Assembly (NCBI GenBank): GCA_021815445.1
Contig: JAKAGM010000001.1
Location: 403,710 to 467,709, forward strand
DNA length: 64,000 bases
Origin: a bacterium
Lineage (GTDB): Bacteria > Patescibacteriota > Patescibacteriia > UBA10025
Reading direction: 5' to 3'
Positions within the stretch are counted from its first letter, which is position 1. Each line of letters starts with the position of its first letter. A program made the translations under genes and the position numbers. The notes beneath the pieces were generated by a model. It ran no database searches. It was not told where the DNA came from and saw only the letters and a list, made by a program, of their open reading frames with translations. This document shows positions 7,019 through 47,624 of this stretch, piece after piece.

Positions 7019-7049
7019 AGTATACCATTTTTTCGGATAAACTTCAAAC

Positions 7050-8469: not shown

Positions 8470-9345
8470 CTATTCGCCGTTAGTACCGTTAGTATTCTCG
8501 CCGGCTTGATTCGTATTTTGGTTTACCGGGGAAATACCGGAAGGATTGTCCTCCACGGCCTTTATTTTTGATTTGATATCTTGGAAAACTCCGCGCTCAT
8601 TGAGTTTCTCCTTGATCTGGAGTTCGAGATCCCCGCCTTGGTCAAGATGAGTTTGCAGCCGCGCGCGAAGCTGCTGCGCTTCCTGCGTGCCCTGCATCTG
8701 CTGCACGGCGTTCTCTAATCCCTTGGAGGATTGCTCCATTGCATTCAGTATGCCCGCTTTGGCCTGCTCGGGAACTTTTGCGTAAATGTTGTTGAGCACG
8801 TCCTGCTGGCGCTGCTGGGTAATCTCAAGTTTCTGCACGAGGTCATCGGCGTTTTTTCCCTGCGCCTTCGCCTTCTCGACACGGGCGTTCATCCCGTCAA
8901 GTGCGGACTTGAATTGTGAGAGGTGTTGTTGCGCGAGGTCGGCTTTCCCTTTTTCAACAAGCTTCTGGGCTTCGGCGACCCGCTTCAGCGCGAACGTGTT
9001 CTCCAGCTCGGCTTTGTGCGCGCTGTCGAAAGTAAACGTAAGCTGGATCTTTTCCCACCAGCCCTTGAGGAAATACCATTTGGAATCAGGCAGGATGCCT
9101 GGATTGCTGACGATGCTGTCCGCGGCCTGACGGGCGGCGTCGAGCGCTTGCGACGGAGATGTCGACGTACTCGTCACTTCTACCTCGCCGTTGGCATCGG
9201 CCTGCACAGCCAGCGGCTGTACGTTAATAATTGCCGTATCGGCATTTGAATCAACGCCCGTATTGAGATTGACGTCAGTAGCATGCGCAGCGAAAGGAAC
9301 TATCGCGGCGAAGGTAATTATGAATATGAGATTCCGTGGCTTCAT
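8470..9345 (-). CDS. secreted coiled-coil protein
   Basis: 291 aa. Signal peptide (MKPRNLIFIITFAAIVPFAAHA), A/Q/K-rich predicted coiled coil, low-complexity NTNG tail. Confidence 0.55.
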   Translation of the reverse strand: MKPRNLIFIITFAAIVPFAAHATDVNLNTGVDSNADTAIINVQPLAVQADANGEVEVTSTSTSPSQALDAARQAADSIVSNPGILPDSKWYFLKGWWEKIQLTFTFDSAHKAELENTFALKRVAEAQKLVEKGKADLAQQHLSQFKSALDGMNARVEKAKAQGKNADDLVQKLEITQQRQQDVLNNIYAKVPEQAKAGILNAMEQSSKGLENAVQQMQGTQEAQQLRARLQTHLDQGGDLELQIKEKLNERGVFQDIKSKIKAVEDNPSGISPVNQNTNQAGENTNGTNGE

Positions 9346-9451: not shown

Positions 9452-12283
9452 TTATCTGTTCTTTCTGACAAACTCCATATGCTCATCAACGGGTGTTTCA
9501 ACGACTTTCTCTATGGGCGGATTTAGCGGGAGGATGAACTGGAATGTACTCCCCTTGCCTTTGCCTAAGCTTTCCACCCAGATTTTCCCTCCGTGCGCTT
9601 CGGTGAGACGGCGTGCGACATAGAGCCCGAGTCCCGATCCGTCAGGATTGATCTGCGCGATACCGTATCCGCGGACGAACTTGTTAAAAAGTCCTTTCGC
9701 CTCTTTCGGTTCGATGCCGATACCGGTGTCCTTGATGCGCACGTGAAGATTGTCCCCTTCCACTTTCGCGCTGACTGACACGGAGCCCTTGTCGGTGTAC
9801 TTGATGGCGTTATCAATCAGGTTCATCACCACGTCGGAGATTTTATCCGAGTCAAAAGGAACTTTGGGGAGCGGGCCCTTTATTTTTTCGAATACAAGCT
9901 TGAGCTTCTTGTCTTCGGCTGCTTTTTTGAGCACATCTACGCTCTTGACGATAATGTCTTCGATGCTCGCGGGAGCTTTTTTGAGCACTAGGTTGCCCGA
10001 CTCTATCTTTGACACGTCGAGGAAAATTCTGATGAGGCGGATCATGCGCTTGGATTCCTCGAGTAAACTTTGCATGATCCCGAGCTGGTCCTTTTTTACC
10101 TTGCCGAAGTCGCCGCCGACAAGCATCGACAGGTACCCCATGATGCCGGTCATCGGCGTACGGAGCTGGTGCGAAGCGATTGATACGAATTCTGATTTGG
10201 CCTGGTCAAGCTCTTTTAAGTGTTCGTTGGCCTCTGCGAGTTCCTTGTTCGATTCCTCTATTTCCCTGTACAGCTCGATGTTCTTATACACGATGCCTGT
10301 CTGGTTAGCGAGCGCTTTCATAATCTGCAAATCTGTTTCCTTGAGCTCACCCGGATCCGCGTCGAGCACATAGTCGATAGCGCCCACCATCTCGCCTTCT
10401 GACTGAATTGGAACAGCGATGACGGTCTTAACGCCGAGGGTGCGCTGAATCGCATTTGCCGCATCCGCCGGCACAGGCGGAGAAATGAACTCTGCAAGCT
10501 TCTCCCCTATTTCCACCTTGCCGGCTTTGATGGAGCGTATGGAGCGTGTATTATCTTTATCAAAGCGTCCCCAAAGTTCGGATATAGGTTTCGGGAGGAA
10601 TTTGATAATTTTGTCGGTGCGCGCGCTTTTGGTGATAGCTTCAGGGAAGAGTTTCCGCCTGTCTTTGCCCAGGAACAGCAGGATGCCTCCGATGAAACCC
10701 ATTTCAGTGGCGATAGAATCAACAATGTCCTGCGTGACGCGCTTCAGGTCAAGCGAACGTGTCATGAGCGTGGTGACTTTCTGGATGGCCGAGAGGAACC
10801 TGTTGCGCTCCTGCAGTTGGGAGTTCGTCGACTGCAAGTCGTGGGTCGCGATATCTATTTCTTTTTGCAGTTGGACATTGAACTGCTTGATCTGGTCGTA
10901 GAGCTGGGATTTCACGATGGCCGATGCGAGCTGGGGGCCGAGCAGTTCAAGCAGGTTAATGTCCTCATCCCCGAACGGGTCGCCCGAAAGCTTATGCCCG
11001 AGCACGAGCACGGCGTTGACGTCTTTCTCGACAAAGACCGGCGAGACGAGGGACGCGTCAAGCTGGTCGAGCTGTTCCTTTGAGCCCTCCAGGTCAGCCC
11101 GGGCCTGTTCGTCAGTCGTATCCTCTATCTTCCGCTCGAGCGCTTCAAGCACCACGACGCGCTTTGACGCAACGAGATACCGCATGAGCGGGCTCGTGCG
11201 CCTGATCGAGTACGCCTGGTGCACGCCCTCCCCGCGCACGACAAAGTCTCCCCGTTTCGTCGGAGCCACATAGACGACGGTCCTGCTGATTTTCAAATCT
11301 CTCGTGAGTTTGTCTTCAATGAGGGTGGTGAGCTTGTTCAGGTCAATTTCGCGGTTGATGATGTTGGAAAGGTCTGAGAGAAGTTTTTGGTAGTCAATGC
11401 GCTTTTTGTAGAAAAGGTTGTCGGTTACGTTAGCTATGAAGCGCTTCAAGGGATCAAGGATGAGGACGATAAAGATGGAGACACCAATAGCAATAAGACC
11501 TTTTGCTGCGAGCGAAACACCAAGACTCTGGGGAAGTAAAATTGCTAGACCAATAATTGAAGCTGAAAATAACAAGACCACGATCGAAAAGGCTACCGCT
11601 CTTAAAACTAGAACTCTAACATCTAACAACTGATGTCTGAATATCGCATAAATGATAAAAATCAACCAAATAATTGAGAACGCAGGACCAATTTGGATCA
11701 AGTTGTAGTTGCCTATCCAAGGTAAAATCAGATTAAACGATACACCAATGATACCCGACATAAGAGTTCCAATAAGTAAATATCGAAGCTGCAACCTAGA
11801 CGTTCCTTGCGACCTACGGAGATTACTGAAATAGTTAATAAATAAGATAACAAAATAGAAGATAAACCAGAGACTGTATAAGTGGTAAAGTGACCCCAAG
11901 TCAATGATGTTTGGATTGCCAACTATGACTCTTTTAATGAAGTACTTAGTTGGAATCAAAAAAACAAAAAGAATAAAAGGTGCAGTCGTGAGAAAGAATT
12001 TTAACTTTCCAAAAGACTTATGCCGATAGGGGAAAAGAAAAGAGAATTGCAGTAAACTTGTCGCGATAAGAGCCGCAGCTATGTAATATTCAATTCCCCA
12101 GATTTTTGCCAATTTAACACTTCCTGACATACGAAACATCGCGATCCCAAATACCCAACCAATGATTCCTAATACATAAAACAAGAAGACTCTGTTCTTT
12201 AATGAATCACTTTTTCTATAAAGCAAAATAAAAAGCAACACAAACTCGAGTATCGCCTCTATTATCAGGATATTATTAAGCAT
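9452..12283 (-). CDS. sensor histidine kinase (7TM N-terminal sensor, two GAF-like domains, HisKA, HATPase_c)
   Basis: 943 aa. About 7 N-terminal TM helices. H-box ASHQLRTPMTGIMGY. ATPase motifs IDNAIKYT, GSGLGLYVARRL, GKGSTF. The N-terminal third is markedly AT-rich compared with the kinase core. Confidence 0.85.
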   Translation of the reverse strand: MLNNILIIEAILEFVLLFILLYRKSDSLKNRVFLFYVLGIIGWVFGIAMFRMSGSVKLAKIWGIEYYIAAALIATSLLQFSFLFPYRHKSFGKLKFFLTTAPFILFVFLIPTKYFIKRVIVGNPNIIDLGSLYHLYSLWFIFYFVILFINYFSNLRRSQGTSRLQLRYLLIGTLMSGIIGVSFNLILPWIGNYNLIQIGPAFSIIWLIFIIYAIFRHQLLDVRVLVLRAVAFSIVVLLFSASIIGLAILLPQSLGVSLAAKGLIAIGVSIFIVLILDPLKRFIANVTDNLFYKKRIDYQKLLSDLSNIINREIDLNKLTTLIEDKLTRDLKISRTVVYVAPTKRGDFVVRGEGVHQAYSIRRTSPLMRYLVASKRVVVLEALERKIEDTTDEQARADLEGSKEQLDQLDASLVSPVFVEKDVNAVLVLGHKLSGDPFGDEDINLLELLGPQLASAIVKSQLYDQIKQFNVQLQKEIDIATHDLQSTNSQLQERNRFLSAIQKVTTLMTRSLDLKRVTQDIVDSIATEMGFIGGILLFLGKDRRKLFPEAITKSARTDKIIKFLPKPISELWGRFDKDNTRSIRSIKAGKVEIGEKLAEFISPPVPADAANAIQRTLGVKTVIAVPIQSEGEMVGAIDYVLDADPGELKETDLQIMKALANQTGIVYKNIELYREIEESNKELAEANEHLKELDQAKSEFVSIASHQLRTPMTGIMGYLSMLVGGDFGKVKKDQLGIMQSLLEESKRMIRLIRIFLDVSKIESGNLVLKKAPASIEDIIVKSVDVLKKAAEDKKLKLVFEKIKGPLPKVPFDSDKISDVVMNLIDNAIKYTDKGSVSVSAKVEGDNLHVRIKDTGIGIEPKEAKGLFNKFVRGYGIAQINPDGSGLGLYVARRLTEAHGGKIWVESLGKGKGSTFQFILPLNPPIEKVVETPVDEHMEFVRKNR

Positions 12284-12290
12284 TTTGACT

Positions 12291-13181
12291 TTACTTTTTT
12301 CTTAATATACCTAATCCATGAATCATTAAGGGCTCATAGATGATCTCGAAATCATCGGCAAAATTGGTCTCATGAAGAATATCAAAAAATTCGACCGGAC
12401 TTCGGTGGACCATTCTCCACTTTACTGTTTTAGAGATAAACTTTTCCTCAAAGTTTTTGTTAATGTTTGAGGTTATTATAGTTGATCCGCTATTTAATAT
12501 CCCATAGAGTTTATTAAATACTCTAACTATCTTTTCATCATCGAAATAATCAACGATGCCGACCATTTCTATAATATCGGGAGCCTTTTTAGAAACTAGA
12601 TCATAAGAATCTTCTATATTTAATAGATGTTGATTAACATTGTCCCCAACGCCATACTTTCTTGCTAGTTCTCTGCTGTAATTAATTGCATTAATATCTC
12701 TGTCTACCAATGAAGCTTGAATATTGATCAAAGATAGATCAATCTCAGAAATTACTTCAACTACCCCCCTAGCAGATCCCGATCCTAAACTAACTATACT
12801 TATATTTTTTTTACTCTTTGATCGCTGGTTAATTTCATTCATCAAAATTTTTTTGAAAAGTCTCAACCTATTACGCAGAGCTCTTGGATTTCTTTGGTTT
12901 AACCAAATAAAATCGAAAAGGCTCACCCAATCCGGTTTTAACTGCTTACCAGTAAAATTATACATCTCCTCGAGTGCCCTGTATTGTGTTGAAAAGGTTT
13001 TGATAACTTCTGCTTTCTTGCTTTGTATCAATAATTTATGACCCCATTTATAGGGAAAAATAGTTGCAACCACCATCCAAAAAAAATTAAATGCCCTTAG
13101 AAAAAATGATATTTTCTCATATTCTTGACTTACATCCATGCTGACAGGCTTTCCATTAATCTTGTTTTTTGTGGTAATCAT
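12291..13181 (-). CDS. putative SAM-dependent methyltransferase with N-terminal TM segment
   Basis: 296 aa. Motif I-like VSLGSGSARG, acidic LVDRD, motif III-like APDIIEMVGIVDYF. 8 bp upstream of the histidine kinase gene. Confidence 0.45.
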   Translation of the reverse strand: MITTKNKINGKPVSMDVSQEYEKISFFLRAFNFFWMVVATIFPYKWGHKLLIQSKKAEVIKTFSTQYRALEEMYNFTGKQLKPDWVSLFDFIWLNQRNPRALRNRLRLFKKILMNEINQRSKSKKNISIVSLGSGSARGVVEVISEIDLSLINIQASLVDRDINAINYSRELARKYGVGDNVNQHLLNIEDSYDLVSKKAPDIIEMVGIVDYFDDEKIVRVFNKLYGILNSGSTIITSNINKNFEEKFISKTVKWRMVHRSPVEFFDILHETNFADDFEIIYEPLMIHGLGILRKK

Positions 13182-13360
13182 TTTTTTATTTGAATTAAAT
13201 CTCTTGACTCACCATACCACAAAACTCAGCTTTTTTCAAGTTCTTATAATAATTTCTAAGAATGCCAGACAAAAAATAGATAACTATGTAAAAAACCCCG
13301 CTCTCACGGCGCTTATATAAACAGCGTAACCTTTCTTTCCCCCAGTATCAACTCAACACA

Positions 13361-14038
13361 TCATTTAGTAACCACTTCAAGCGAATTAAGCACCTGCGTA
13401 AACGCTTGTTCGAATCCTTCATTTAAAACACAAGGCTTTTTAATAACAAGATTCCATTCAGGCGATGAACTTCTGGGAGACAAATAGTATATTTCTCCGC
13501 CATTGTCGCCCTTGTTGGGTATCTCACCTTTTGGAAGTATTCCAGTCCTTTTATAACCATGAAAAATCGTAAGGTTTACCTGCATAAATGTTTGATCTTG
13601 CATTTGTTTTTGACTTTCAATAAATGATGGCGTAATGAGATTTTTCTCAGTAATAAAAAAGTTAACCTGTCCACAGGTGAGATCAGTGAAAGTAATTGGA
13701 CTGTCGGTGGTTGAAATCGAGACCACCGCGGACTCTTTGGCTGAGTAATTTCCTAAATCATTAACAAGTGCTGGATCTCCATTATAAAATGTATTCCAAT
13801 CTTGCGGTACAGAGAAAGTAATCTTTTGGTGGGTGCTGAGGGGAATTGTTACAATCTTGGGTGTTATCTGCTCGACCTGAGTTTGAGAATTGCGAGAGTA
13901 TATTGATTTCAGCTGCCAGACTGAAAAACCGACAACTAGCAACACAGCTAAGATAATAATTACTTGAAAGTATTTTTTTGGCATAGGATTGAGTATAGCA
14001 TTAATAAATTGGAGGGAGGTGCATTGGAAACAATGCAC
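13361..14038 (-). CDS. hypothetical membrane-anchored protein
   Basis: 225-aa track ORF with a GTG start at 14038; an internal ATG at 13984 (MPKKYFQVIIILAVLLVVGF, TM helix) is an alternative start. AT-rich. Confidence 0.45.
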   Translation of the reverse strand: MHCFQCTSLQFINAILNPMPKKYFQVIIILAVLLVVGFSVWQLKSIYSRNSQTQVEQITPKIVTIPLSTHQKITFSVPQDWNTFYNGDPALVNDLGNYSAKESAVVSISTTDSPITFTDLTCGQVNFFITEKNLITPSFIESQKQMQDQTFMQVNLTIFHGYKRTGILPKGEIPNKGDNGGEIYYLSPRSSSPEWNLVIKKPCVLNEGFEQAFTQVLNSLEVVTK

Positions 14039-14099
14039 CTCCCTCCCTTCATGAAAAAGAGAGACTCACGTATCTCTTTACCCTAGCGAGGCAGATCTG

Positions 14100-14762
14100 T
14101 CAGTTCATGGCCTGATATACGCTGTACTTGGTTCCCACATACCTGCGAAACCAGTCGAACGAGACAAAGTGCACGAAGACATAGTCAGGAAAGTCCTCCG
14201 TGAACCAGTTGGAGTCGACCCAGTACATTCCCGCAACACCGTTATAAATTACATAACGATAGAAAATTGTGGTATGCGGACCATTGTACTTGCTGGTTGC
14301 TAGATGCATCTGAATGATGTTGCCGACCCCGAGGCCGCTCTCGATCGTGCCGCCGCCGATAACATTGCCGTCAACGATTTTTATCACGTGTCCACTGTTG
14401 AGATAGAAATCGGTTGAGCTCGTCGCGGGCAGAGCAAAGCCCGTGGCATCCTTGACAACCGCGCTCGCCCACGGTTTGCACTGTACGTAGACATTCTGAC
14501 CAATGTCCTGGTGCGCACGGTTCCAGATCGCCTGGTTAATATACCACCACCAGGCATTATCCGCAGCAAGTGGAGATCGAACAGGAACTTTAAGCACGGT
14601 ATCAGTCGGTGCGATCATTGATAGATCGTACGCCGAGCATTCAGATGCCACATTTCCAGCAGATTCAGTGCTGTTTGTAACTCTTTCACCACATCCAACC
14701 ATCGCAATCACCAGCACAAGCATAAGGCCGGCCATCGCCCAATACAACGCTTTCGGTTTCAT
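14100..14762 (-). CDS. lipoprotein with a CHAP-like Cys/His pair (possible peptidoglycan hydrolase)
   Basis: Lipobox LVIAMVGC. NVYVQCKPWASAVV (Cys) followed about 40 aa later by NSGHVIKIV (His), resembling CHAP-domain catalytic residues. This is a recalled pattern only. Confidence 0.45.
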   Translation of the reverse strand: MKPKALYWAMAGLMLVLVIAMVGCGERVTNSTESAGNVASECSAYDLSMIAPTDTVLKVPVRSPLAADNAWWWYINQAIWNRAHQDIGQNVYVQCKPWASAVVKDATGFALPATSSTDFYLNSGHVIKIVDGNVIGGGTIESGLGVGNIIQMHLATSKYNGPHTTIFYRYVIYNGVAGMYWVDSNWFTEDFPDYVFVHFVSFDWFRRYVGTKYSVYQAMN

Positions 14763-15193
14763 GGTGTGAAACCTTCCTTTCCATCTTTTTCTGTACGTCA
14801 GTGGGCGCTCAATTTGTCGAAGAGCAACTGATATAAGGAGAGACCCACGTTTTCTCCCTACTCAGCTTTTTTGGCACGTTCCTCACCTCACTTCCTTTTT
14901 TGAATGAACGGTTTTTGGGTTTACCTGTCCTGTTTTGACTCAATGGAATGTCAGCTTTTGCACAATTTCACTGTTTGATCACCACTTTCTTAGACGGCTG
15001 TCAGATGCGACGGCGCAAGACTGTTCCCTGTCTCCATCTCCCTCGTTCTCATTATTCTTGTGAACGAACCGCCGTCGGTTTTGAAAAGAAATCTGCAATT
15101 CTCCTACTATCATTATACCATTTTGACAAATTTTCTTTAACCTAAAACGGGAGTACGAAAGAGCACTCCTGGCGCGAGCTCATTTTGCCCCAC

Positions 15194-16594
15194 TTAATCT
15201 TCGGCTACACCCTTAACAGCTCGCGCAATCGCCATCCGATACATTTCCGCTTGGACGAGCGCGCTGTTGGCGTGTACGTAGAGCTTTTTCAGATAGGCAA
15301 TCTGTTCGGCAAAGAGTATTGCACGGGAAGACTTGTTCACCAGCACACCGATAGCGGTAAGCGTATCCTCGTGCCCGAAAGGTAAAAGTGCGCGGATGTG
15401 GTTTTCCCTCAGGAAGTTTTGCGCGGACTTAAGTAACCGCGCTTCTTCATTAGAGAATCTCTCCAATCGGTAAGGCAACTCATCGACAACAAGTATCTCC
15501 TGCCGCATTCTCAGAAATTGAGCAAGTTCCCCATGAGCTGCAATGTTCACTCCGCCTTTATTATCCCGGAAATCTTGATCCGGGCTGCTTCTCTGAAGAA
15601 TGTACCCGTCATACTCAGGCAGTACTCGCGCGAGCTCTGAGCGGATTTTCTCCACAAGGTCATTGAAATGCACTGATGATTGGGCGACTAACTGCAGTCT
15701 TTGCAAAGAATCAGACTGTTCCTTTTCGCGGCTGACAAAAATCCGATCTACGAAGGAGTAGATCAGCCTGCGAAGGGGCTCCGCGGTAAAACCGACAATC
15801 AAAATAGCGATAAAGATTTTGACTCCCTCGGTAAGAATGGCGTACTGGGTCAACTGTTGTAAGACAACAATAAGATATGCATAAGTGATAAAGAGAATAG
15901 CGAAGGAGAAAAACTGGACAATCCCCTTGCGTATTACAAACTGGATATTAAAAAAACGGTAACGGGTGATCGCATACGATATAAATGAAGCAAAAACAAG
16001 TGCCGTGAGACTGTCAAATCTTGCCAGCCACAATACATGGTGGAGAGGTGAAGCAAAATCAATGATAATAATAATAAATATTGGGGCGGCAAAGCCAAGT
16101 AATACGTAATTTAACTGCATTCGCTCGAGTCCCGAGGCCTGGTGTCGCATCTGCACTAAATGACTAACCGCCCAAATCAAGATGCATGAGCTTGGAATAG
16201 CATAAAGAAGAAAGTATTTTCCATCCGCGATTTCAAAACCGCGAGGCGTGGTGAGCACTTGCATTGCAATCACCAGATTAGGAATAAGCGCAAGAAAAAA
16301 TAAAACTACAGAGTATATAATAATCGCAAATTTTACCACGGGTTTAAGTATCAGTTTGGCATATGCCGCAGCCCAAAAGAATATTCCGCCGATAAGCAAC
16401 GCGCCGACCGAATACGTTAGATTCACATATGGATACCGAGGGAATTGATAGTATATATAATTAACAAAAACCCAAAACGCTATAAGGAATACCAGATAAG
16501 CAAACTTTTTTTGGATATCATTTCTTGCCTTTCTGAGCACGACAGCTCCTAGGACAAGATTGAATACTCCGGCAATCAAAATAAGGATATTCAT
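15194..16594 (-). CDS. kinase-less 7TM + GAF-like sensor-module protein (paralogue 3)
   Basis: 466 aa, about 7 TM helices plus a cytoplasmic GAF-like domain. Shares RYRFFNIQFVIRKG...AEPLRRLIYSFVDRIFVSREKE motifs with the two neighbours and with the N-terminus of histidine kinase 9452..12283. No H-box or ATPase motifs. About 36% GC. Confidence 0.6.
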   Translation of the reverse strand: MNILILIAGVFNLVLGAVVLRKARNDIQKKFAYLVFLIAFWVFVNYIYYQFPRYPYVNLTYSVGALLIGGIFFWAAAYAKLILKPVVKFAIIIYSVVLFFLALIPNLVIAMQVLTTPRGFEIADGKYFLLYAIPSSCILIWAVSHLVQMRHQASGLERMQLNYVLLGFAAPIFIIIIIDFASPLHHVLWLARFDSLTALVFASFISYAITRYRFFNIQFVIRKGIVQFFSFAILFITYAYLIVVLQQLTQYAILTEGVKIFIAILIVGFTAEPLRRLIYSFVDRIFVSREKEQSDSLQRLQLVAQSSVHFNDLVEKIRSELARVLPEYDGYILQRSSPDQDFRDNKGGVNIAAHGELAQFLRMRQEILVVDELPYRLERFSNEEARLLKSAQNFLRENHIRALLPFGHEDTLTAIGVLVNKSSRAILFAEQIAYLKKLYVHANSALVQAEMYRMAIARAVKGVAED

Positions 16595-16599
16595 AATAG

Positions 16600-18042
16600 T
16601 TATTTCATAATCCTCTCAATCGCCATCCGATACATTTCTGCCTGCGTGAATGCGTTGTTCGAAATTGCATGAAGCTTCTTGATAAACGCGATCTGTTCAC
16701 TGTAGAGCACACTTCTTGGAGATTTTCCTATAAGCAGGAAAATAATGGAGACCCGGCCTTCTTGGTCCAAAGGTAACACCGCCTTAATTTTATGCTGGGC
16801 TAGAAACGATTGGGATTCGCGCAAAGCCCGAACTTCGTCCTCGTCGTACCTATCGAGTTTATAAGGAATCTCGTCGGTCACCAAGAGTTCAGTGTGCTGT
16901 TTTAAGAAAGTTATCAATACATGATCAGATGGAATTTTCACATTCATTTTTCCTTTGGCGGTAAATTCATTGTTTTCTCTTTTTAATACCGCAACATCAA
17001 AATCGTTAAACACATGCGAAAGCTCGCTTCGGGTTTTCTCAATAATCTCATCCACGTGCGACGCCGAGCGAGCCAATAACTGCATCCGACTCAGCGCTTC
17101 ATCCTGCTCCCGCTCCTTGCCGGCGAAGATTCGATCAATCCATCGATAAATAAATCTCCGTAGAGGTTCGGCGGTCACGCCAACCACCAGCACGGCAATA
17201 ATAAGAAGCGTTTCACTTGAAATATCAAGAGAACCCCTGACATTGCGTTGAAAGAAAAGTATGAGATAGATATAGACGCTGAAAAGCAGGGCAAAAGTTA
17301 CAAACTGGACAAACCCTTTTCGTATCGCAATACGAATATCCATGAGACGATAGCGAACGATACCATAACTCATTAATATAGCCATAATGACCGTGGCTAG
17401 GGGCCCATAGGGGGAAACAACAGCATAGTGTGATTCAATCCCCTTAGTTACAAAAGCGGGGTACAATAAATTTGCGTAAAGCCCGGCAGCGGCAGCGACA
17501 CTGAATCCAGCAAATACCCAAACTACTTTCAAACGCTCAATTCCACTCGATTTCAGCATTCGAACAAAGAGGATAGCTAAACCAACTAGAATAAATAATA
17601 GAATATATGCTGCATATGGATAATATAATCTCCCATATATATTATCGTTTATTTGCTGCCGAGGAAGTATAATAAGTTTGGATGAAATTAAGCTTGTGTA
17701 GCTTACTATGAAAAAGAACCCGGAAACCAATAACAACGAATACTTAGTAAAAGGATGGATAGTGATCTTTTTTGGAAAGTAAAAACTGAAGAATAGGAAG
17801 GAAGATGCAATGATCGCCGCAAATGCAAAAGTAAAATACGTCCAAATAAGCGCCGGGTAATAATCTTTTAAGTTTCCCGAGAACCAATTAGATAATACCC
17901 ACCCTGAGATAGAAAAACACAGTATAAAAAATAACTGATTTACTCGCTCTCTGGGACGATGTAATAATACAACCAGACCCAGTATAAAATTGGAAATTGC
18001 AACAAGTAATGTAATAACGAAAAAAGTGTCCATATTAAGCAA
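16600..18042 (-). CDS. kinase-less 7TM + GAF-like sensor-module protein (paralogue 2)
   Basis: 480 aa with the same architecture (RYRLMDIRIAIRKGFVQF...AEPLRRFIYRWIDRIFAGKEREQDEALSRMQLL). 5-bp gap to paralogue 3. Confidence 0.6.
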   Translation of the reverse strand: MLNMDTFFVITLLVAISNFILGLVVLLHRPRERVNQLFFILCFSISGWVLSNWFSGNLKDYYPALIWTYFTFAFAAIIASSFLFFSFYFPKKITIHPFTKYSLLLVSGFFFIVSYTSLISSKLIILPRQQINDNIYGRLYYPYAAYILLFILVGLAILFVRMLKSSGIERLKVVWVFAGFSVAAAAGLYANLLYPAFVTKGIESHYAVVSPYGPLATVIMAILMSYGIVRYRLMDIRIAIRKGFVQFVTFALLFSVYIYLILFFQRNVRGSLDISSETLLIIAVLVVGVTAEPLRRFIYRWIDRIFAGKEREQDEALSRMQLLARSASHVDEIIEKTRSELSHVFNDFDVAVLKRENNEFTAKGKMNVKIPSDHVLITFLKQHTELLVTDEIPYKLDRYDEDEVRALRESQSFLAQHKIKAVLPLDQEGRVSIIFLLIGKSPRSVLYSEQIAFIKKLHAISNNAFTQAEMYRMAIERIMK

Positions 18043-18054
18043 TGTATTATCCAG

Positions 18055-19452
18055 TTATTTCGTAATCCTCTCAATCGCCTGCTTATAGGCTAAAGCGCTG
18101 GTGAAAGAAAGTGTGGCCTGCTGACCAAAGTTTTTTAGAAACTTGATTGAATCTGCGGTAAAAGTCGGAGAGCTTTTTGTATCCGGGAAAACATAGGCCC
18201 CGAGAAATTCATCACCTGATCCAAGTGGCATTGCTAGGGCAATTCCTTTTGCCTTGAGACTTTCTAGAATGGTACCCAACCCTTCTTCGCCTTCTTCTAT
18301 TCGATAAGGTAATTCCTCTGTGATAAGGATTGTTCCTTTTGATAATTCATGACTGAGTGCGTCGTTAGAGGGAATAGTGAGATCGCCTTTCGGGTAACTT
18401 GTAAGTTGATTCTTCTGTGGGTCAAAAAGAAGAAAGGAGGTCGAACATCCAAGCACTTTATTGAGCTCTGCTGAAACTTTCTCGACAAGCGACCGGAACT
18501 GCATTGTAGAACGTGAAATCAGCTCGAGGCGCTGGAGAGCTTCTTTATCCGCACGTTCTTTGCTCGCAAATAGTTTATCGATAAACCTATAAATAAAGCG
18601 CCGTAATGGCTCGATGGTAATAACAATCAAAAGGACGGCGATGAGAACCGTGTTGCCCTCCGAGAAATCCAGCGAATCCTTCGCTGCTTTCTGTAAAAAG
18701 AGAATGATGTAAGTATAAATGCCGAAAAGGGTGCCGAAAGTGAGAAACTGGACAAGTCCTTTACGAATAATTATTCTGATGTCGAGGAAACGGTAACGTA
18801 GTATTGCGTAAAAGCTACATAGTGCAAATGTTAACGTTGATATGTTCGCAATCCCAAAGTAATAAGTTTCATGCCGATTGTAAGCAAAGAAGACGCTCGC
18901 ACTCAACCCTACCACAACAGAGAAAGTGTAACTAAATAGAACATATTTGAGCTGCAGCTTTTGGATACCTTTTAATATTCTGTATTTTAGCAACAGAGCA
19001 CCTAATGAGATTGGAATAAAATAAATGGTTAATATCCCAAGATAAATGAAATATTGAGAATAATTGTATATTAGGTTGTCCCCATCATAAAAAAATATTT
19101 TTCCAAAAAAAGTTAATGCAACGACAAAAAGAATAGGAAAAAGGAGAAGTAGCTCTTTCGTCAGAGTAAGCTTTTTACTTTCACGAGGGAAATGTAAGGA
19201 AAAAATAGCAACAAAATACGAAATCATTGCAGCAGCGGCGAAGTCCATTTTTGAAAAAATGAGATTCAGATTTGGACTTTGCCGTAACGAAGAAGTTTCG
19301 AGTGCCCCAGATATTACCCAAATGGTCCCAAAAATGAGAAAACCAACAAACCGGCGATAGGTTTTATGTTTTTTCCTACTCCTCAAGGTCACAAAAGTCA
19401 GTAACAAATAGGCAGCTGCTGTTAGAACTATCAAGAAAAAGATGATATCCAT
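18055..19452 (-). CDS. kinase-less 7TM + GAF-like sensor-module protein (paralogue 1)
   Basis: 465 aa with the same architecture (RYRFLDIRIIIRKGLVQF...IEPLRRFIYRFIDKLFASKERADKEALQRLEL). 12-bp gap to paralogue 2. Confidence 0.6.
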   Translation of the reverse strand: MDIIFFLIVLTAAAYLLLTFVTLRSRKKHKTYRRFVGFLIFGTIWVISGALETSSLRQSPNLNLIFSKMDFAAAAMISYFVAIFSLHFPRESKKLTLTKELLLLFPILFVVALTFFGKIFFYDGDNLIYNYSQYFIYLGILTIYFIPISLGALLLKYRILKGIQKLQLKYVLFSYTFSVVVGLSASVFFAYNRHETYYFGIANISTLTFALCSFYAILRYRFLDIRIIIRKGLVQFLTFGTLFGIYTYIILFLQKAAKDSLDFSEGNTVLIAVLLIVITIEPLRRFIYRFIDKLFASKERADKEALQRLELISRSTMQFRSLVEKVSAELNKVLGCSTSFLLFDPQKNQLTSYPKGDLTIPSNDALSHELSKGTILITEELPYRIEEGEEGLGTILESLKAKGIALAMPLGSGDEFLGAYVFPDTKSSPTFTADSIKFLKNFGQQATLSFTSALAYKQAIERITK

Positions 19453-19485
19453 ATTGTTTGTTTCAACAATTAAAGATGAGTTTAG

Positions 19486-20067
19486 TTACTTCTCATCCCC
19501 CTCCATATACTTCTTAATCACCTTATCCCTCAAATAATCCGCCTTCGTGGTCCTATACTGCTTAGCTTTCAATTTAAGGAAGCGCTCGATCTGAGGAGTA
19601 ATGCGCAAGGTAAACTTGATTGTCGGGAGATCTTTGCTTTCTCCTGTCTCAATGCGGTGCAGGAAATCACTGAGAATCGCGGGCAAATCAGGCTCTTCAT
19701 AGACTTGGATTTTGACCGAGTCGGGAATCTTGCTGTTGGTAAAATAGCCCATGACACTCTTCGCCCCGGAATGCTTTTCATAGAGATAAAGGATTGGCTT
19801 TTTCTGGGCGATGGCGTAGGCGAGGAGGTAACCGACCTCGGAATCCTGGACGGACGCCTCGATGATGATACCGTCCATCTTGTCGAGAACGTTTTCTCCG
19901 GCATCGCTCATGCGCTCTATCTCGCTTTTCGTGAGGTCTTCTTTGCCTTCATGGTCGTGGTTGGTGATGACCATAACGCCCGAATCTTTGAGCACGTCAA
20001 CGATTTTAGCGTACAGCCGCTTGAGGTAATCCCTGTGGTTATAGGTTGTGTGGACAAAGATTCTCAT
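19486..20067 (-). CDS. hypothetical protein with C-terminal ribbon-helix-helix-like tail
   Basis: Start moved to internal ATG (MRIFVHTTYNH...), which overlaps the upstream asparaginase-family stop by 4 nt (ATGA). C-terminal IKFTLRITPQIERFLKLKAKQYRTTKADYLRDKVI resembles a CopG/Arc-type RHH. Confidence 0.5.
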   Translation of the reverse strand: MRIFVHTTYNHRDYLKRLYAKIVDVLKDSGVMVITNHDHEGKEDLTKSEIERMSDAGENVLDKMDGIIIEASVQDSEVGYLLAYAIAQKKPILYLYEKHSGAKSVMGYFTNSKIPDSVKIQVYEEPDLPAILSDFLHRIETGESKDLPTIKFTLRITPQIERFLKLKAKQYRTTKADYLRDKVIKKYMEGDEK

Positions 20068-21080
20068 ACGTTTGCTTTGATGCGTTCTCCGGCAACATCC
20101 CGATAGAGAAGCTTGCGGAACTCCTCTCGTTCGCGAGTCTTTCCGAGTACCCACATGCATTTCGTCAGAGCGGCTTCGTAGGTCATGTCGTTGATAAGAA
20201 TATATTCTTCATTCGCGCGAGTACTCTTGAGAGCGAACAGATTGTGGCAGACCACTGGTATTCCTTTTTCCTGAGCAAGCCTGAGATACGGGATAAATGA
20301 CTGCGGGTAGGGCAACGTACTATATGAACGCAACATGAGCGCGCGACAGCCGGAAGCGATCATCCGCGCTATCTGCTCGGCATGGGACGCCGGCTGGATT
20401 CGCATCGTGCATACATGGTCGTCAAGTGCGGCGTCAACTTTCAGTTTCCCTTTCCCACGCTCTCGGACATGTCCGAAAAGCTTGATGCCAAAGTCGACTT
20501 TGCCAAGAAGACCTTCTCCAATCGGCTCAAAAAAGTTCTGGCCCGGCCCGATGCTCTTGATTGTCTGGTTAGCACGCATCACTCTGTTGCCGTGCATGAT
20601 GACGACTTCGCCGAGGTTCATGGTCGCGACTTGCAAAGCGTTGATAAGATTCGCGCGCACGCCAAGGTTGCGATAATCGCTTACGAGCCCCTCTGAGTCA
20701 GCGGGGCTTTGCATTTCTTTCGCCAGCGGAGAGGTCGTGAGTACGACAGGCTTACCGAGATTGTGCAGCATGAAAGAAAGCATGGCGCCGGTGTAGACAA
20801 TCGTATCTATGCCGTGGGTTACGACGACGCCGTCAACACTCGGATAGAGTTCGCCGATTTTCTTTGCCAACGCGCTCCAAAGCGCCGGAGTAACCTCGGA
20901 AGCAGGGCCGCCAAACACAAAGACGGGCTCGATATCGGCAAGTATGCCAAGCTCGGGCAATTCTTTGAGCCATGCGGTAATTTCCTCTTTTTTTGTTACC
21001 TCAAAAATGCGTCCATCCCCCGTTTGGATTCCTGACCCCCCAAAGAATAGTAATGCGATTTTTGAACGGCTCTTGGCCAT
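20064..21080 (-). CDS. L-asparaginase type I family protein (catalytic threonines apparently substituted)
   Basis: 338 aa, the same length as AnsA. HGIDTIVYTGAMLSFMLHNLGKPVV aligns with the asparaginase HGTDTM...KPVV block; the N-terminal FFGGSGIQTGDG aligns with TGGTIAG. Confidence 0.7.
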   Translation of the reverse strand: MAKSRSKIALLFFGGSGIQTGDGRIFEVTKKEEITAWLKELPELGILADIEPVFVFGGPASEVTPALWSALAKKIGELYPSVDGVVVTHGIDTIVYTGAMLSFMLHNLGKPVVLTTSPLAKEMQSPADSEGLVSDYRNLGVRANLINALQVATMNLGEVVIMHGNRVMRANQTIKSIGPGQNFFEPIGEGLLGKVDFGIKLFGHVRERGKGKLKVDAALDDHVCTMRIQPASHAEQIARMIASGCRALMLRSYSTLPYPQSFIPYLRLAQEKGIPVVCHNLFALKSTRANEEYILINDMTYEAALTKCMWVLGKTREREEFRKLLYRDVAGERIKANV

Positions 21081-24054: not shown

Positions 24055-26151
24055 CTACATCCTCATCGCCGGGGCCATCGGCCGCATCGGCTTGGGCGAC
24101 TGAGGAAGTTCTTCAATCATCGGCGCCACGAACTGGCTGTTATAGAGCGAGGCGTAAAAGGCGTTCTTGGCGAGGAGCTCCTCATGCTTGCCCTGCTCGA
24201 CGATATTACCGTCGCGCATCACAAGGATAAGATCGGCATGCCGTATAGTGGAGAGCCTGTGCGCGATAACAAAGCTTGTTTTGCCCTTCATCAGCCGCTC
24301 CATTGCTTGTTGAATCAGCACTTCCGTGCGGGTATCGACTGAGCTTGTCGCCTCGTCGAGGATAAGCATCGGAGTCTTAATAAGCATGGCGCGCGCAATA
24401 GTTAATAGCTGTTTCTCGCCTTGAGAGATATTGTTTGCCTCCTCGTCGAGCACCATGTCGTACCCGTGTGGCAGTGAATGGACAAAGTGGTCCACATGCG
24501 CCGCCTGTGCCGCTTCGGTAATTTCAGCATCAGTGGCGCCGGGTTTGCCGTAGGCCAGGTTTTCGCGGATGGTGCCATTGAATAACCATGTGTCCTGGAG
24601 CACCATGCCGAACAGTCTTCGAACATCCGCGCGTGTCATAGAATGAATATCCACACCGTCGACCCGGATTGAACCGCTGTTGATGTCATAGAACCGCATC
24701 AGTAAATTGACCATCGTGGTTTTGCCCGCGCCCGTCGGCCCGACGATTGCGATGCGCTGGCCGGGCTTTATGGAGGCGGTGAAATCGTTGATGATGATTT
24801 TCTCGGGCGTGTATCCGAAATGCACATGGTCGAATTCGACTGCGCCGTGGACTTGCTTCAGCTTTTTGGAATCAGCGGCGTCCGGTATCTCCTCGCTCTC
24901 GGCAAGGAACTCAAACACGCGTTCAGCTGCCGCCGCAGTTGATTGCATGACATTGGCGATGTTGGCCGTCTGGATGATCGGCTGGTTAAACTGGTTCACA
25001 TACTGCATGAACGCCTGGATATCGCCGATGTTGAGGCGGCCATGAATAGCGAGGATGCCGCCGAGGACGGCAACGCCGACATATCCGAGGTTGCCGACAA
25101 AGTTAATAATCGGGAAAAGGAGGCCCGAGAGGAACTGCGATTTCCACGCGCTCCCGTACAGCTCGGTGTTATGTTTGGTGAAAATTTCAATCGAGCGGGC
25201 TTGGCCGTTAAACACTTTCATCACGCTGTGGCCGCCGTACATCTCCTCGATGTGCCCGTTGAGATGGCCGAGCGTGTCCTGCTGGAGTTTGAAATACCTT
25301 TGGGAACGCTTGACGACGAACCCTATCAGGCCGAAGCTCAGGGGCAGGGTCACGAGCGCGACGAGCGTCAAATGCCAGCTGATGGAAATCATCATGGCAA
25401 GGATGCCGATAATCATGGTGACAGACGTGATGATCTGCGTGAGAGACTGGTTCAACGTCTGGCTCACCGTGTCAACGTCGTTCGTGATGCGGCTCAAGAC
25501 TTCGCCGTGCGTCGTCCTGTCGAAATAGCGGAGCGGCATCCGGCCGATCTTCGTGGAGATATCCTGCCGGAACTTGTACGTAATCTTTTGGCTGACATTG
25601 GTCATGATCCAGCTCTGGATGTAGCTGAAGATCGCGCTCAGGCCAAAGAGCACCATCAGCTCTATGGCGATAGTGATAAGTTTCTGGTAATCGAAGGACG
25701 GCCGAGTCGACAGGTCAAGGTTGGCAATGTCATTGCGCACGACAGCCGGGATTTTATCAGCTATGGCCGACGGCAGATTCTTTATCAGGGCGGCGCCCTT
25801 CGTGCCGGCGGGAAGTTTCGTGCCGGGAGGCAGCTTGGCCGTGAGCTGGTCATACGCCGTCCGGTGGATGAAATCATTGACCACCTGGTTCGTCATTTTG
25901 CCCAAGATTTTCGGACTGGCGATGGCGAATATAGTGCTCGCAATAGTGAAGAAAGCGACAACAGCGAGCGACCGCCAAAACGGCTTGATGTAACCTCCGA
26001 GTTGCCGCATCGTTTTTTTAAAGTTTTTCGGCTTCTGGGCAATACCCATCATGCCCATCGGATTGCCGCGGCCCATCGGCCCGACGCGCGGAGGATCTGC
26101 CGGAGAATTCCCGGTTTGTCCTGTTGGAATTGCGGGTCTGCGGGCCGTCAT
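24055..26151 (-). CDS. ABC exporter, fused permease/ATP-binding protein (heterodimer partner 1)
   Basis: 698 aa. Six-TM transmembrane domain, Walker A GPTGAGKTT, signature LSQGEKQLL, Walker B LILDEATSSVD. 4-nt overlap with the upstream partner. Confidence 0.85.
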   Translation of the reverse strand: MTARRPAIPTGQTGNSPADPPRVGPMGRGNPMGMMGIAQKPKNFKKTMRQLGGYIKPFWRSLAVVAFFTIASTIFAIASPKILGKMTNQVVNDFIHRTAYDQLTAKLPPGTKLPAGTKGAALIKNLPSAIADKIPAVVRNDIANLDLSTRPSFDYQKLITIAIELMVLFGLSAIFSYIQSWIMTNVSQKITYKFRQDISTKIGRMPLRYFDRTTHGEVLSRITNDVDTVSQTLNQSLTQIITSVTMIIGILAMMISISWHLTLVALVTLPLSFGLIGFVVKRSQRYFKLQQDTLGHLNGHIEEMYGGHSVMKVFNGQARSIEIFTKHNTELYGSAWKSQFLSGLLFPIINFVGNLGYVGVAVLGGILAIHGRLNIGDIQAFMQYVNQFNQPIIQTANIANVMQSTAAAAERVFEFLAESEEIPDAADSKKLKQVHGAVEFDHVHFGYTPEKIIINDFTASIKPGQRIAIVGPTGAGKTTMVNLLMRFYDINSGSIRVDGVDIHSMTRADVRRLFGMVLQDTWLFNGTIRENLAYGKPGATDAEITEAAQAAHVDHFVHSLPHGYDMVLDEEANNISQGEKQLLTIARAMLIKTPMLILDEATSSVDTRTEVLIQQAMERLMKGKTSFVIAHRLSTIRHADLILVMRDGNIVEQGKHEELLAKNAFYASLYNSQFVAPMIEELPQSPKPMRPMAPAMRM

Positions 26152-27926
26152 AGTGAAACCTCCCCTGTTACTTGTTTTGGAACACGTCCCGGATGGCTCC
26201 GTAATTCTTCCTCTGAAAGCTGTGACGAGGCGATTTCGCGGTACACGGTGCAGGTCTTCATTAGCTCATTGTGCGTCCCCTGCCCCACGACCCGGCCCTC
26301 ATCGAGTACGACAATTTTGTCAGCGTTCATGATAGTGCTGATCCTTTGCGCGACAATCAAGACCGTCTTGTCCTTTGTCGCGTGTGAAAGCGCCTGGCGC
26401 AGTTTCGCGTCAGTGGTAAAGTCCAGCGCTGAAAAACTGTCGTCAAATATGTAAATCAGCGGCTTGCGGATGATGGCGCGGGCGATGGACAGCCTCTGCT
26501 TTTGTCCGCCTGAGACGTTCGTGCCGCCCTGGGAAATTTCTCCCTGGTACCCGCCTTTGAGTTTCTCCACGAAATCTTTCGCCTGGGCAAGCTCGGCGGC
26601 ATTACGAACCTCATTTTCTGAAGCGTTCGGCACGCCGTATTTCAAATTACTTTCTACGGTGCCGGAGAACAATATCCCCCGTTGCGGGACATAGCCGATT
26701 TTCGAGTACACGTCCTCCATCCTCATTGAACGGATATCCACACCGTCAATCTTTACCGCGCCTTTGGTCACGTCGTAGAACCGCGGTATCAGGTTGATGA
26801 GCGTAGACTTGCCGCTCCCCGTGCTCCCGACAAACGCCGTCGTCTGTCCGGGCAATGCAGTAAAAGAAATATCATGCAGGACCGGCACGTCGGCGCCTTC
26901 ATAGGTGTACGTCACATGGTCAAACTCCACTTTCCCGCCGTGAACTGTATTGGCATCAACAGGATGTTCGGGATCCTTCACCGTCGCCTCTGTCGCGATC
27001 ACCTTGCCGATGCGGTCAGCCGACACCGACGCTCTCGGCACGAGAATGAATACTATCGTAATCAAAAGGAACGCAAATATGGCCTGCATCGCATACTGCA
27101 TGAACGCAATCATCTGGCCGATCTGCAAATTCCCCATATCAACAAGATGCGCGCCGTACCACACGACGGCGAGCGTGGTAAAGTTCATAATTAGCAGCAT
27201 AATCGGCTGCATAATCACCAACAGCCGGTTCACAAACAGATTGACTTTCGTGAGCTCGACGTTTGCGCTGTCAAACTTTTGCTCTTCCACCGGCTCGCGA
27301 TTGAATGCGCGTATCACGCGGAGACCGGTAAGTATTTCGCGGCTGACTAGGTTGAGCCGGTCGACGAGCTTCTGGAGCTTTTTAAACTTCGGGATGGCAA
27401 TGGCGAACAAGACAGCGATAATGGCAATAAGTATGCCGACGGCGAGGCCCATTATCCACGTCATCGACGGGGCATTCTGGTACGCTTTGATAATGGCCCA
27501 CACGCCCATAAACGGCGCCATCAACGCCATACGCAACAGCATCGTCAATACCATCTGTATTTGCTGGACGTCATTCGTGGAGCGGGTGATGAGCGACGCG
27601 GTAGAGAACTTGTTGAACTCATTGAGCGAAAAACTCTCCACCTTGGCAAATGTTGCCGCGCGAATGTCGCGCGAAAAGCCGGCCGCTATCCGTGACGCGA
27701 ACCAGCCGACGACGACGCTCGCCCCCGCAGCGCCAAGCGCGACAAAAAGCATCTTCCACCCTGTGCTCCACACTACCGACAGGTCCTGCGCGACAATGCC
27801 TTTGTTAATGATAGTAGCCATGTAGTCGGGCAATGCCAACGTGGCCGCGACCATGGCGTATACCATGACGAGCAAAAAGAAAAACTGCCAGAGATACGGT
27901 TTAAAATATGGGAGAATCTTTTTCAC
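26148..27926 (-). CDS. ABC exporter, fused permease/ATP-binding protein (heterodimer partner 2)
   Basis: 592 aa. Walker A GSTGSGKST, signature VSGGQKQRLSIAR, Walker B YIFDDSFSALD. Confidence 0.85.
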   Translation of the reverse strand: MKKILPYFKPYLWQFFFLLVMVYAMVAATLALPDYMATIINKGIVAQDLSVVWSTGWKMLFVALGAAGASVVVGWFASRIAAGFSRDIRAATFAKVESFSLNEFNKFSTASLITRSTNDVQQIQMVLTMLLRMALMAPFMGVWAIIKAYQNAPSMTWIMGLAVGILIAIIAVLFAIAIPKFKKLQKLVDRLNLVSREILTGLRVIRAFNREPVEEQKFDSANVELTKVNLFVNRLLVIMQPIMLLIMNFTTLAVVWYGAHLVDMGNLQIGQMIAFMQYAMQAIFAFLLITIVFILVPRASVSADRIGKVIATEATVKDPEHPVDANTVHGGKVEFDHVTYTYEGADVPVLHDISFTALPGQTTAFVGSTGSGKSTLINLIPRFYDVTKGAVKIDGVDIRSMRMEDVYSKIGYVPQRGILFSGTVESNLKYGVPNASENEVRNAAELAQAKDFVEKLKGGYQGEISQGGTNVSGGQKQRLSIARAIIRKPLIYIFDDSFSALDFTTDAKLRQALSHATKDKTVLIVAQRISTIMNADKIVVLDEGRVVGQGTHNELMKTCTVYREIASSQLSEEELRSHPGRVPKQVTGEVSL

Positions 27927-47437: not shown

Positions 47438-47573
47438 TGCCTATATTCCGTTACGACTAGCAAAATCTTCATCAAAACAAGTATAACACATATTGTGCTT
47501 TAATGGGGTATCTTCAAATACAAATTTAAATTATGTCACTAAGGGAGATGTTCACTTATCCACAAGGCGGGTA

Positions 47574-47603: not shown

Positions 47604-47624
47604 AAGAACGTACAATACCTACAT

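Follow-up and report, generated by a model that had tools for sequence, protein, structure and literature searches.

Why should the base composition of a bacterial genome change abruptly in the middle of a gene? The question is raised by a histidine kinase gene in a 64,000-nucleotide stretch of DNA (contig JAKAGM010000001.1, positions 403,710 to 467,709; here called the window), which lies on a metagenomic contig of 877 kb (ENA ERZ27237554) and comes from a member of the Patescibacteriota. A first, sequence-only reading held that a stretch low in guanine plus cytosine (GC) begins inside this gene, and that an AT-rich sensor, acquired horizontally or recombined from a family of neighbouring paralogues, was grafted onto a resident, GC-rich kinase core. 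Comparison with 76 related loci, taken from GTDB species representatives and from contigs for selected proteins, points to a larger unit. Window positions 11482-19483 form the hypervariable middle part of a locus that Kerfeldbacteria-like Patescibacteria otherwise conserve, the downstream edge of the hypervariable block falls inside the kinase gene, and enzyme and sensor are exchanged from lineage to lineage as whole blocks, whose synonymous sites are AT-rich in every lineage. The best explanation as a whole, which we favour with moderate confidence, is that the block is a synthase-receptor specificity cassette, hypervariable and passed between lineages by homologous recombination.

The kinase is encoded by an open reading frame (ORF) at 9452..12283 on the minus strand and has 943 amino acids. 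Pfam places a HisKA_7TM domain at residues 6-222, further helices to about residue 277, and then GAF, GAF, HisKA and HATPase_c. PF16927 scores 40.8 bits (cut-off 28.6), which places the protein in the HisKA_7TM family, while HisKA scores 55.9 and HATPase_c 93.6, alongside the two GAF domains. Divided where the GC content of third codon positions (GC3) changes, the gene consists of two parts:

9452..11481, minus strand: conserved cytoplasmic core of the kinase (codons 268-943), with the last helix and linker carrying the motif DPLKRFI, then GAF, GAF, HisKA and HATPase_c; GC3 0.67

11482..12283, minus strand: variable HisKA_7TM input module of the kinase (codons 1-267), with PF16927 at residues 6-222; GC3 0.35

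How sharp is the change? Measured in 200-nucleotide windows, GC falls from 0.52-0.61 at 10900-11400 to 0.31-0.38 at 11500-13300, the drop lying between 11400 and 11600 and the low values lasting until about 13300. GC3 is about 0.6 across genes in the remainder of the window and 0.59 for the kinase gene taken whole. A maximum-likelihood change point for G or C at third positions falls at codon 268 (window 11482, support 11467-11488) and separates 0.35 on the N-terminal side from 0.67 after it, with a log-likelihood gain of 39.8 against a maximum of 10.4 in 2000 permutations. The low-GC stretch does therefore begin inside the kinase gene, as first claimed. It continues through a methyltransferase gene at 12291..13181 (GC3 0.32) and an ORF at 13361..14038 (0.35), is interrupted, again as claimed, by a gene at 14100..14762 of normal composition (0.59), and ends before the upstream flank gene at 19486..20160 (0.62). 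The claim that low GC resumes through three paralogues, with seven-transmembrane (7TM) and GAF domains, to about 19450 needs a qualification: their GC3 is 0.47, 0.42 and 0.39, but the block is not uniform, the C-terminal half of the paralogue at 15194..16594 being near normal (0.55-0.63). The right edge of the block, at about 19483, coincides with the end of DNA similarity to the asparaginase-side flank of a relative.

Could the step be an artefact, either of membrane-protein codon bias or of a chimeric metagenome assembly? The low-GC part of the kinase is its membrane part, and the window is metagenomic. Helix-like codons of background genes, however (n = 990, including the ABC-type transporters at 24055..27926), have a GC3 of 0.66, and non-helix background codons 0.61, against 0.40 for the helix codons of the kinase. 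Because background membrane-helix codons are this rich in GC, hydrophobic coding is rejected as the cause of the drop, which bears out the argument of the sequence-only reading, and the soluble methyltransferase next door has a GC3 of 0.32. Amino-acid composition is rejected as well: with the codon usage of the window itself, the sensor part lies about 0.10 in GC under the expectation from its amino-acid composition, and its observed GC3 is 0.32-0.44 where 0.60-0.64 is expected, so that a breakpoint is present beyond what the amino acids predict. An assembly chimera is rejected because the exact 943-residue protein occurs on 8 long contigs (0.2-1 Mb) and the GC3 pattern recurs in 38 independent assemblies, among which are single-cell genomes and a closed chromosome. 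The probability left to an artefact of either kind is negligible.

Does relatedness change where composition does? From codon 268 on, the kinase is 75% identical to its best orthologues (P0002-P0004, P0007), while its first 267 residues are 26-32% identical to the same proteins. For the sensor the best relatives are P0006, with 60% identity (core 57% identical to that of the query), and P0058, with 56% (core 36%). In 40-residue windows the query is nearest to loci L086 and L087 until about residue 220 and nearest to L002 and L003 from about residue 241, with amino-acid identities of 45-82% to the former pair before about codon 264 and of 62-95% to the latter pair after it. A maximum chi-square analysis of 943 informative nucleotide sites puts the switch, from L086 (the relative on the sensor side) to L002 (the relative on the core side), at nucleotide 790 (codon 264, window 11494; near-optimal range codons 239-267), with a chi-square of 147 against a permutation maximum of 16.3. 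At the DNA level, similarity to L086 covers the 3' end of the methyltransferase gene and kinase nucleotides 1-756, and similarity to L002 begins at kinase nucleotide 805 (window 11479). The GC3 change point and the relatedness switch lie at one place, so composition and relatedness change together, and the composition break inside the kinase gene marks a true recombination junction:

11467..11567, minus strand: recombination junction, from the GC3 change point (11467-11488) and the relatedness switch (11485-11567, best position 11494)

The idea of a sensor grafted onto a resident core thus holds as far as the junction at codon 264-268 is concerned; the unit that moved is larger than proposed, and includes the abutting methyltransferase gene. 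On the core side of the junction, codons 326-525 (window 10709-11308) have a GC3 of 0.74-0.80, which exceeds both the window background (about 0.61) and the distal part of the kinase (0.58-0.72); this might mark a crossover hotspot beside the cassette.

Is the junction the trace of a single, fairly recent horizontal acquisition of an AT-rich sensor by a GC-rich resident kinase, as the sequence-only reading may be taken to imply? The sharp break in composition and relatedness at codon 264-268 would suit such an event, as would the fact that the closest relatives of the sensor belong to kinases with distant cores. The orthologues make it improbable. The closest named relatives of the kinase are annotated as Candidatus Kerfeldbacteria or Patescibacteria, and in a set of 38 non-redundant full-length orthologues, on which the GC3 statistics are based, the sensor has a lower GC3 than the core in 38 of 38. 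GC3 averages 0.28 in the sensor and also 0.28 in the gene next upstream, as against 0.56 in the core and 0.54 in housekeeping neighbours (Wilcoxon p = 7e-12 for the contrast). Comparison of the junction with orthologous kinases shows a step common to all of them whose position varies: a significant change point is found in 36/38, mostly at query-equivalent codons 211-460 (median 313), and the family-mean GC3 profile stays at 0.27 to residue 250 and rises to about 0.57 by residue 400. The window holds one instance of a recurrent process. Nor is there a sign of recency, the nearest sensor relatives being 55-60% identical. A word-indexed search for a sensor donor returned a single 55%-identical protein of 427 amino acids, and an exhaustive search of 1.84 billion representatives returned 2530 relatives, none above 40% over the full domain. 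With low sensor GC3 in every orthologue and no close donor in the databases, an import particular to this genome, or a recent one, is not borne out.

What, then, happens at these loci? Three of them, L082, L084 and L085, share DNA that is 94-98% identical from kinase nucleotide 543-646 on, together with a shared block of about 470 nucleotides upstream, and between these shared blocks carry three unrelated inserts: a 271-residue protein with GtrA and PEMT/ICMT domains, a 475-residue methyltransferase, and a FeeM-like synthase with ThiF. Likewise L002 and L003 are 89% identical from kinase nucleotide 700 on and in the upstream flank, and differ between the shared parts (2.3 kb versus 7.3 kb of unlike sequence). 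When about 40 orthologues are compared in pairs, median identity comes to 29% in the sensor as against 58% in the core. Some pairs whose cores agree at 97-99% have sensors that agree at 27-36% (P0002/P0003, P0023/24/25), and the converse also occurs, P0015 and P0020 having sensors 94% and cores 82% identical.

A sensor that simply evolves fast in place, under diversifying or relaxed selection, with AT-biased mutation lowering GC3 where constraint is weak, would require no exchange at all. It would account for two correlations, that of GC3 per 50-residue bin with amino-acid conservation (rho = 0.88) and that of cassette GC3 with host core GC3 across lineages (r = 0.65). It is nevertheless very unlikely. 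Flanks 94-98% identical enclose unrelated enzyme genes, near-identical cores carry sensors as far apart as those just listed, sensor and core give discordant closest relatives, and in P0015/P0020 the sensors are more alike than the cores. Moreover, residues 201-300 are conserved like later segments and nevertheless have low GC3, which fits crossovers at variable depth. As an observation apart, several proteins of about 1090 amino acids (P0162-P0164, P0167, P0171-P0172 and others) have two HisKA_7TM-like stretches, at about residues 10-250 and 270-515; this tandem-sensor architecture is absent from the window.

What does the exchanged block contain? It always holds the 5' 540-800 nucleotides of the kinase gene (the HisKA_7TM input domain), one to three genes for small-molecule-tailoring enzymes that are translationally coupled to the kinase start, and a variable number of 7TM-GAF or 7TM-only paralogues; what the cassettes encode across loci is enzymes or 7TM proteins. 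In 35/37 loci the kinase is preceded by a co-directional gene that lies at most 15 nucleotides from the kinase start and often overlaps it. The most frequent enzyme is a FeeM/GNAT autoinducer-synthase-like protein, which forms the upstream-gene family in 15 loci. Elsewhere the cassettes have ThiF, several class I methyltransferases, an aminotransferase, a GT1 glycosyltransferase, a protein like phosphatidylserine (PS) decarboxylase, or GtrA with PEMT/ICMT. The sensor type predicts the upstream enzyme family: the family is the same in 11/13 pairs of loci whose sensors are at least 45% identical, and in 19/556 pairs (3%) whose sensors are less than 35% identical. For the window, the proposed partner enzyme of the sensor is the methyltransferase:

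12291..13181, minus strand: class I methyltransferase dependent on S-adenosylmethionine (SAM), PF12147/PF13847 by Pfam, 296 amino acids, ending 7 nucleotides before the kinase start; GC3 0.32

The pairing persists outside this kinase lineage. In L086 and L087, which have the window's sensor type, a PF12147 methyltransferase of 293-294 amino acids ends 1 nucleotide before the kinase start; these methyltransferases are 54-55% identical to that of the window and the sensors 56-60%, while the cores differ. The kinase cores, domain architectures and neighbourhoods in both loci are unlike those of the window, and the pairing is kept. Remoter homologues of the methyltransferase (28-55% identity) lie directly upstream of a HisKA_7TM kinase in L071, L076, L088, L089 and L090. 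A PF12147 methyltransferase is thus found directly upstream of a HisKA_7TM kinase in 8/8 contexts, which comprise four kinase architectures and unrelated neighbourhoods. A structure model of the methyltransferase (pLDDT, predicted local distance difference test, 92.6) finds its best fold matches in methyltransferases for small-molecule natural products, among them SgvM, TnmJ, RosA, BchU, SibL and a farnesyl pyrophosphate (FPP) methyltransferase, and does not match nucleic-acid or protein methyltransferases. Among solved structures searched by sequence, the methyltransferase has one weak match and the sensor none. In L087 (962-7625) the methyltransferase-kinase pair stands beside a serine recombinase, a terminase-like gene and a ParB-methylase, neighbours of a phage-like or mobile-element-like kind that are a possible vehicle for moving the pair between genomes.

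Could the sensor have come from next door? Upstream of the kinase gene lie its three 7TM-GAF paralogues:

15194..16594, minus strand: 7TM-GAF paralogue 1, without kinase domains; low GC3 in the N-terminal half, near normal in the C-terminal half

16600..18042, minus strand: 7TM-GAF paralogue 2; GC3 0.42

18055..19452, minus strand: 7TM-GAF paralogue 3; GC3 0.39

The paralogues could in principle serve as silent donors for gene conversion or cassette switching within the genome, in the manner of pilE/pilS. They are in tandem, have the same 7TM fold, lie 3-7 kb upstream, and share a (D/E)PL(K/R)RFI motif with the kinase at the junction. The kinase sensor, however, is 22-27% identical to the three local paralogues, and among the kinase sensors of 38 loci and 33 paralogue sensors no pair exceeds 33% identity. 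The sole DNA tract shared at the junction is a 24-nucleotide inverted match (11460-11483 with 15029-15052, 83%), which is at chance level for a region of this size. Such conversion is scarcely credible, and with it falls the suggestion that the sensor was recombined from the AT-rich paralogue family. Some paralogues are likewise discordant between their halves (e.g. 25% versus 80%). Repeats are present at the 3' ends of these genes, one of 27 nucleotides and 96% identity for paralogues 2 and 3 (16598-16624 and 18053-18079) and one of 82 nucleotides and 72% for paralogues 1 and 2 (15226-15307 and 16617-16698). They hint at tandem duplication or local conversion; the C-termini of the paralogues are more alike than their sensors. 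To the membrane region of LuxN, the Vibrio acyl-homoserine-lactone receptor, paralogue 1 has an NCBIfam match of E = 2e-6 and 26 bits, so far under the cut-off of 1550 that it is at most suggestive and of no further use.

How would the blocks move? No tRNA gene was found in the window, no repeats flank the block ends, and no integrase or recombinase was found among the ORFs of the island with Pfam and NCBIfam. A genomic island of the integrase, att-site and tRNA kind is rejected for want of these same components, so the blocks seem to be exchanged by ordinary homologous recombination in the conserved flanks. A search for structured RNA in 8-22 kb gave no Rfam match at E up to 0.1. One crossover takes place in the conserved region of the kinase made up of helix 7, the linker and the first GAF domain (in the window at codon 264-268), and fuses the new sensor in frame to the resident kinase core. 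In the proposed mechanism enzyme and sensor travel together because they would be cognate partners: the former would produce or complete a small molecule, probably lipid-like or derived from an amino acid, to be detected by the 7TM domain and signalled onward by the conserved kinase core. Strains with different cassettes would in this way have different private signals, or pherotypes. The low GC3 may reflect cassette lineages that are long-lived and have diverged too far for internal recombination with the resident allele, and that escape whatever keeps the GC3 of the core high, be it recombination-linked selection or biased repair, and exchange with lower-GC relatives may add to it. The link between recombination and GC3 is itself debated (PMC11879095).

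Need the cassette be a signalling cassette at all? The signalling function assigned here draws on analogy, and the main functional rival keeps the same recombining cassette but has its enzymes modify the cell's own membrane lipids or surface, through methylation, headgroup changes or glycosylation. The 7TM domain would then monitor the state of the membrane or be an exposed contact point, and the diversity would be driven by phage or by the host cells to which these episymbionts attach, as at O-antigen and capsule loci. Several cassette enzymes are of a lipid or envelope type (PS-decarboxylase-like, PEMT/ICMT, GtrA, M23 peptidases, glycosyltransferase), low GC within conserved flanks is typical of surface-polysaccharide loci, and neither a response regulator (64-kb window) nor a peptide signal (ORFs of at least 80 amino acids in 11.4-19.5 kb) was found. 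Against it stand the commonest cassette enzyme, which resembles FeeM/LuxI-type N-acyl amino acid synthases; the fold of the methyltransferase, which matches soluble natural-product enzymes; and the one-to-one pairing of enzyme and sensor across unrelated kinase cores, which is what a ligand-receptor relationship predicts. We regard membrane or surface modification as possible but rather unlikely.

Several observations weigh against the synthase-receptor cassette, or at least against parts of it. A tblastn search with three receiver domains detects no receiver domain or response regulator anywhere in the 64 kb of the window. In L087 and L090 the related pairs of methyltransferase and kinase do have regulators after them. 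No peptide pheromone gene was found in 11.4-19.5 kb, where all ORFs of at least 80 amino acids are accounted for (very short ORFs were not examined). The cassette of the window has no FeeM-like synthase; it has a methyltransferase and two proteins of unknown function, and the 7TM-GAF paralogues have no role assigned in the proposed mechanism. The distance of the nearest sensor relatives implies that the exchange is old or its donor unsampled. No alternative cassette was found in the window's own species, in which the same allele is present on 8/8 contigs; several alleles with near-identical flanks are seen in a related lineage (L082/L084/L085). The cause of the low GC3 is a further weak point, the correlation of cassette and host (r = 0.65) fitting local processes and exchange among relatives alike. 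Finally, the co-inheritance of enzyme and sensor could be plain physical linkage, although the pairing of methyltransferase and 7TM sensor in unrelated contexts argues for something beyond it.

A broader reading may be advanced tentatively. Kerfeldbacteria-like members of the Candidate Phyla Radiation (CPR), which are ultra-small and probably host-attached bacteria, might possess a plug-in chemical-language locus, in which many unrelated enzymes for the synthesis or tailoring of small molecules each bring their own 7TM receptor, and recombination splices the receptors in frame onto one conserved kinase core, so that co-occurring strains have private signals. The enzymes in question would include the FeeM-like N-acyl amino acid synthase with ThiF, several methyltransferases, an aminotransferase, a glycosyltransferase and a lipid methyltransferase. 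On such a reading the GC3 step within the gene would be a marker, recognizable from sequence only, for loci of this kind.

The remaining genes of the block, and the flanks that bound it, are as follows:

13361..13984, minus strand: hypothetical protein with an N-terminal membrane helix, of 207 amino acids from the ATG at 13984 or 225 from the GTG at 14038; GC3 0.35

14011..14046, minus strand: perfect 16-bp GC-rich hairpin, terminator-like, directly after 14100..14762 and separating that gene from the cassette operon

14100..14762, minus strand: lipoprotein-like gene of normal GC (GC3 0.59), unique among the loci compared

19486..21080, minus strand: conserved upstream flank, a 193-residue protein and an asparaginase; GC3 about 0.6

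8470..9345, minus strand: conserved downstream flank, a DUF5667 gene, followed by genes for phosphoglycerate kinase, enolase and two phosphoglycerate mutases, syntenic in relatives

The hypothetical gene is probably the first of the cassette operon; its product has no Pfam or NCBIfam match. The hairpin overlaps the GTG start of the longer ORF (13361..14038), so the shorter ATG start is favoured. The segment 14692-14893, which comprises the 5' end and upstream region of the lipoprotein-like gene, matches at 77% identity the start of an unrelated gene in L003, that for an M23 peptidase (5' region, 6893-7084), and may be a conserved promoter and signal-peptide segment within the variable island. 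In the upstream flank, DNA similarity to L003 (72.6% identity) ends at 19483. The public gene call has the 193-residue gene at 19486..20067 and the asparaginase gene at 20064..21080, with an overlap of 4 nucleotides, whereas the longer ORF call (19486..20160) overlaps the asparaginase gene by 97 nucleotides; the public start at 20067 is probably correct. The 193-residue protein has a weak match of the nucleoside 2-deoxyribosyltransferase kind. Downstream of the enolase and phosphoglycerate kinase genes, two tandem and slightly overlapping paralogues of cofactor-independent phosphoglycerate mutase (iPGM) occupy 787-3911 on the minus strand, a pair conserved in relatives. Elsewhere in the window, a UvrD-like helicase gene (29081-30706, minus strand) is a second gene of low GC3, 0.41 throughout, among GC-normal genes. 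GC also dips to 0.40-0.46 at about 46-48 kb (46000-49540), beside genes for a LexA-like repressor (47493..48248) and a Y-family DNA polymerase (48296..49540) that look like an SOS-type gene pair.

What would follow from a synthase-receptor cassette? It would mean natural pherotypes in uncultured ultra-small bacteria, and a set of orthogonal pairs of enzyme and 7TM sensor plugging into one kinase core, useful for the discovery of HisKA_7TM ligands and for synthetic sensors. The locus would also show cleanly, in nature, how sensors can be swapped in frame at a defined junction. Whatever the function, a composition break within a gene can mark the edge of a recombining cassette and not a recent foreign insertion, low GC being a stable property of the cassette pool across lineages.

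Do known systems behave in this way? One close likeness is to the staphylococcal agr locus, where a hypervariable region spans agrB, agrD and agrC, that is, the genes for signal production and the N-terminal membrane sensor of the kinase, with the cytoplasmic part conserved and the boundary inside the kinase gene (PMC10482373). The same layout is found here, with a variable sensor N-terminus and putative production gene, a conserved kinase C-terminus and a boundary within the gene, and several alleles in near-identical strain backgrounds occur here too, in the related lineage. The differences are that agr works with AgrD, a ribosomal peptide that AgrB processes, that its kinase is of the HPK10 type and that a response regulator lies next to it, whereas here no peptide gene or regulator was found in the window, HisKA_7TM is joined to two GAF domains and a classical HisKA/HATPase core, and the cassette enzymes come from many unrelated small-molecule families. 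The comQXP locus of Bacillus subtilis is of the same kind: ComX and the N-terminal sensor of ComP are divergent, and, as that source summarizes it, divergence between strains does not extend beyond the modifying enzyme, the signal and ComP's N-terminal membrane sensor, the kinase end being conserved (PMC4624242, citing Tran et al. 2000). There the signal is an isoprenylated peptide and the enzyme always ComQ, whereas here the enzyme family changes with the cassette; a search of the papers available found no GC-content precedent for comQXP.

The methyltransferase itself recalls Ralstonia, where the SAM-dependent methyltransferase PhcB makes a fatty-acid methyl ester signal sensed by PhcS, a histidine kinase of the same operon, and where PhcB and PhcS cluster together by signal type (PMC5462968, PMC8578825). 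The methyltransferase of the window is likewise co-directional with and translationally coupled to the kinase (7-nucleotide gap), and it co-varies and is co-inherited with the sensor; the likeness drawn here is one of arrangement. Two signal types are known in Ralstonia, and no junction within a gene or compositional step is reported there. At O-antigen and capsule clusters, and in the central domains of flagellins, long-lived, divergent, low-GC alleles are swapped by homologous recombination in conserved flanks, and junctions at such loci can fall inside flanking genes. Those loci concern surface structures, whereas here the flank is the interior of a signalling kinase and each swap produces an in-frame chimeric sensor kinase.

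To our knowledge, hardly anything has been charted of how cells of the Candidate Phyla Radiation signal to one another, and the literature search brought up neither this locus nor any account of N-acyl amino acid synthases or synthase-sensor cassettes in CPR. HisKA_7TM is a recognised, uncharacterised sensor module of bacterial and archaeal kinases (PMC5847659), and the papers found describe no ligand, paired enzyme or cassette behaviour for it. The locus is best filed with the known polymorphic synthase-receptor loci, for which both the phylum and the sensor domain are new. What is unusual in comparison with those loci is that the partner enzyme is drawn from many unrelated families and is not a variant of one.

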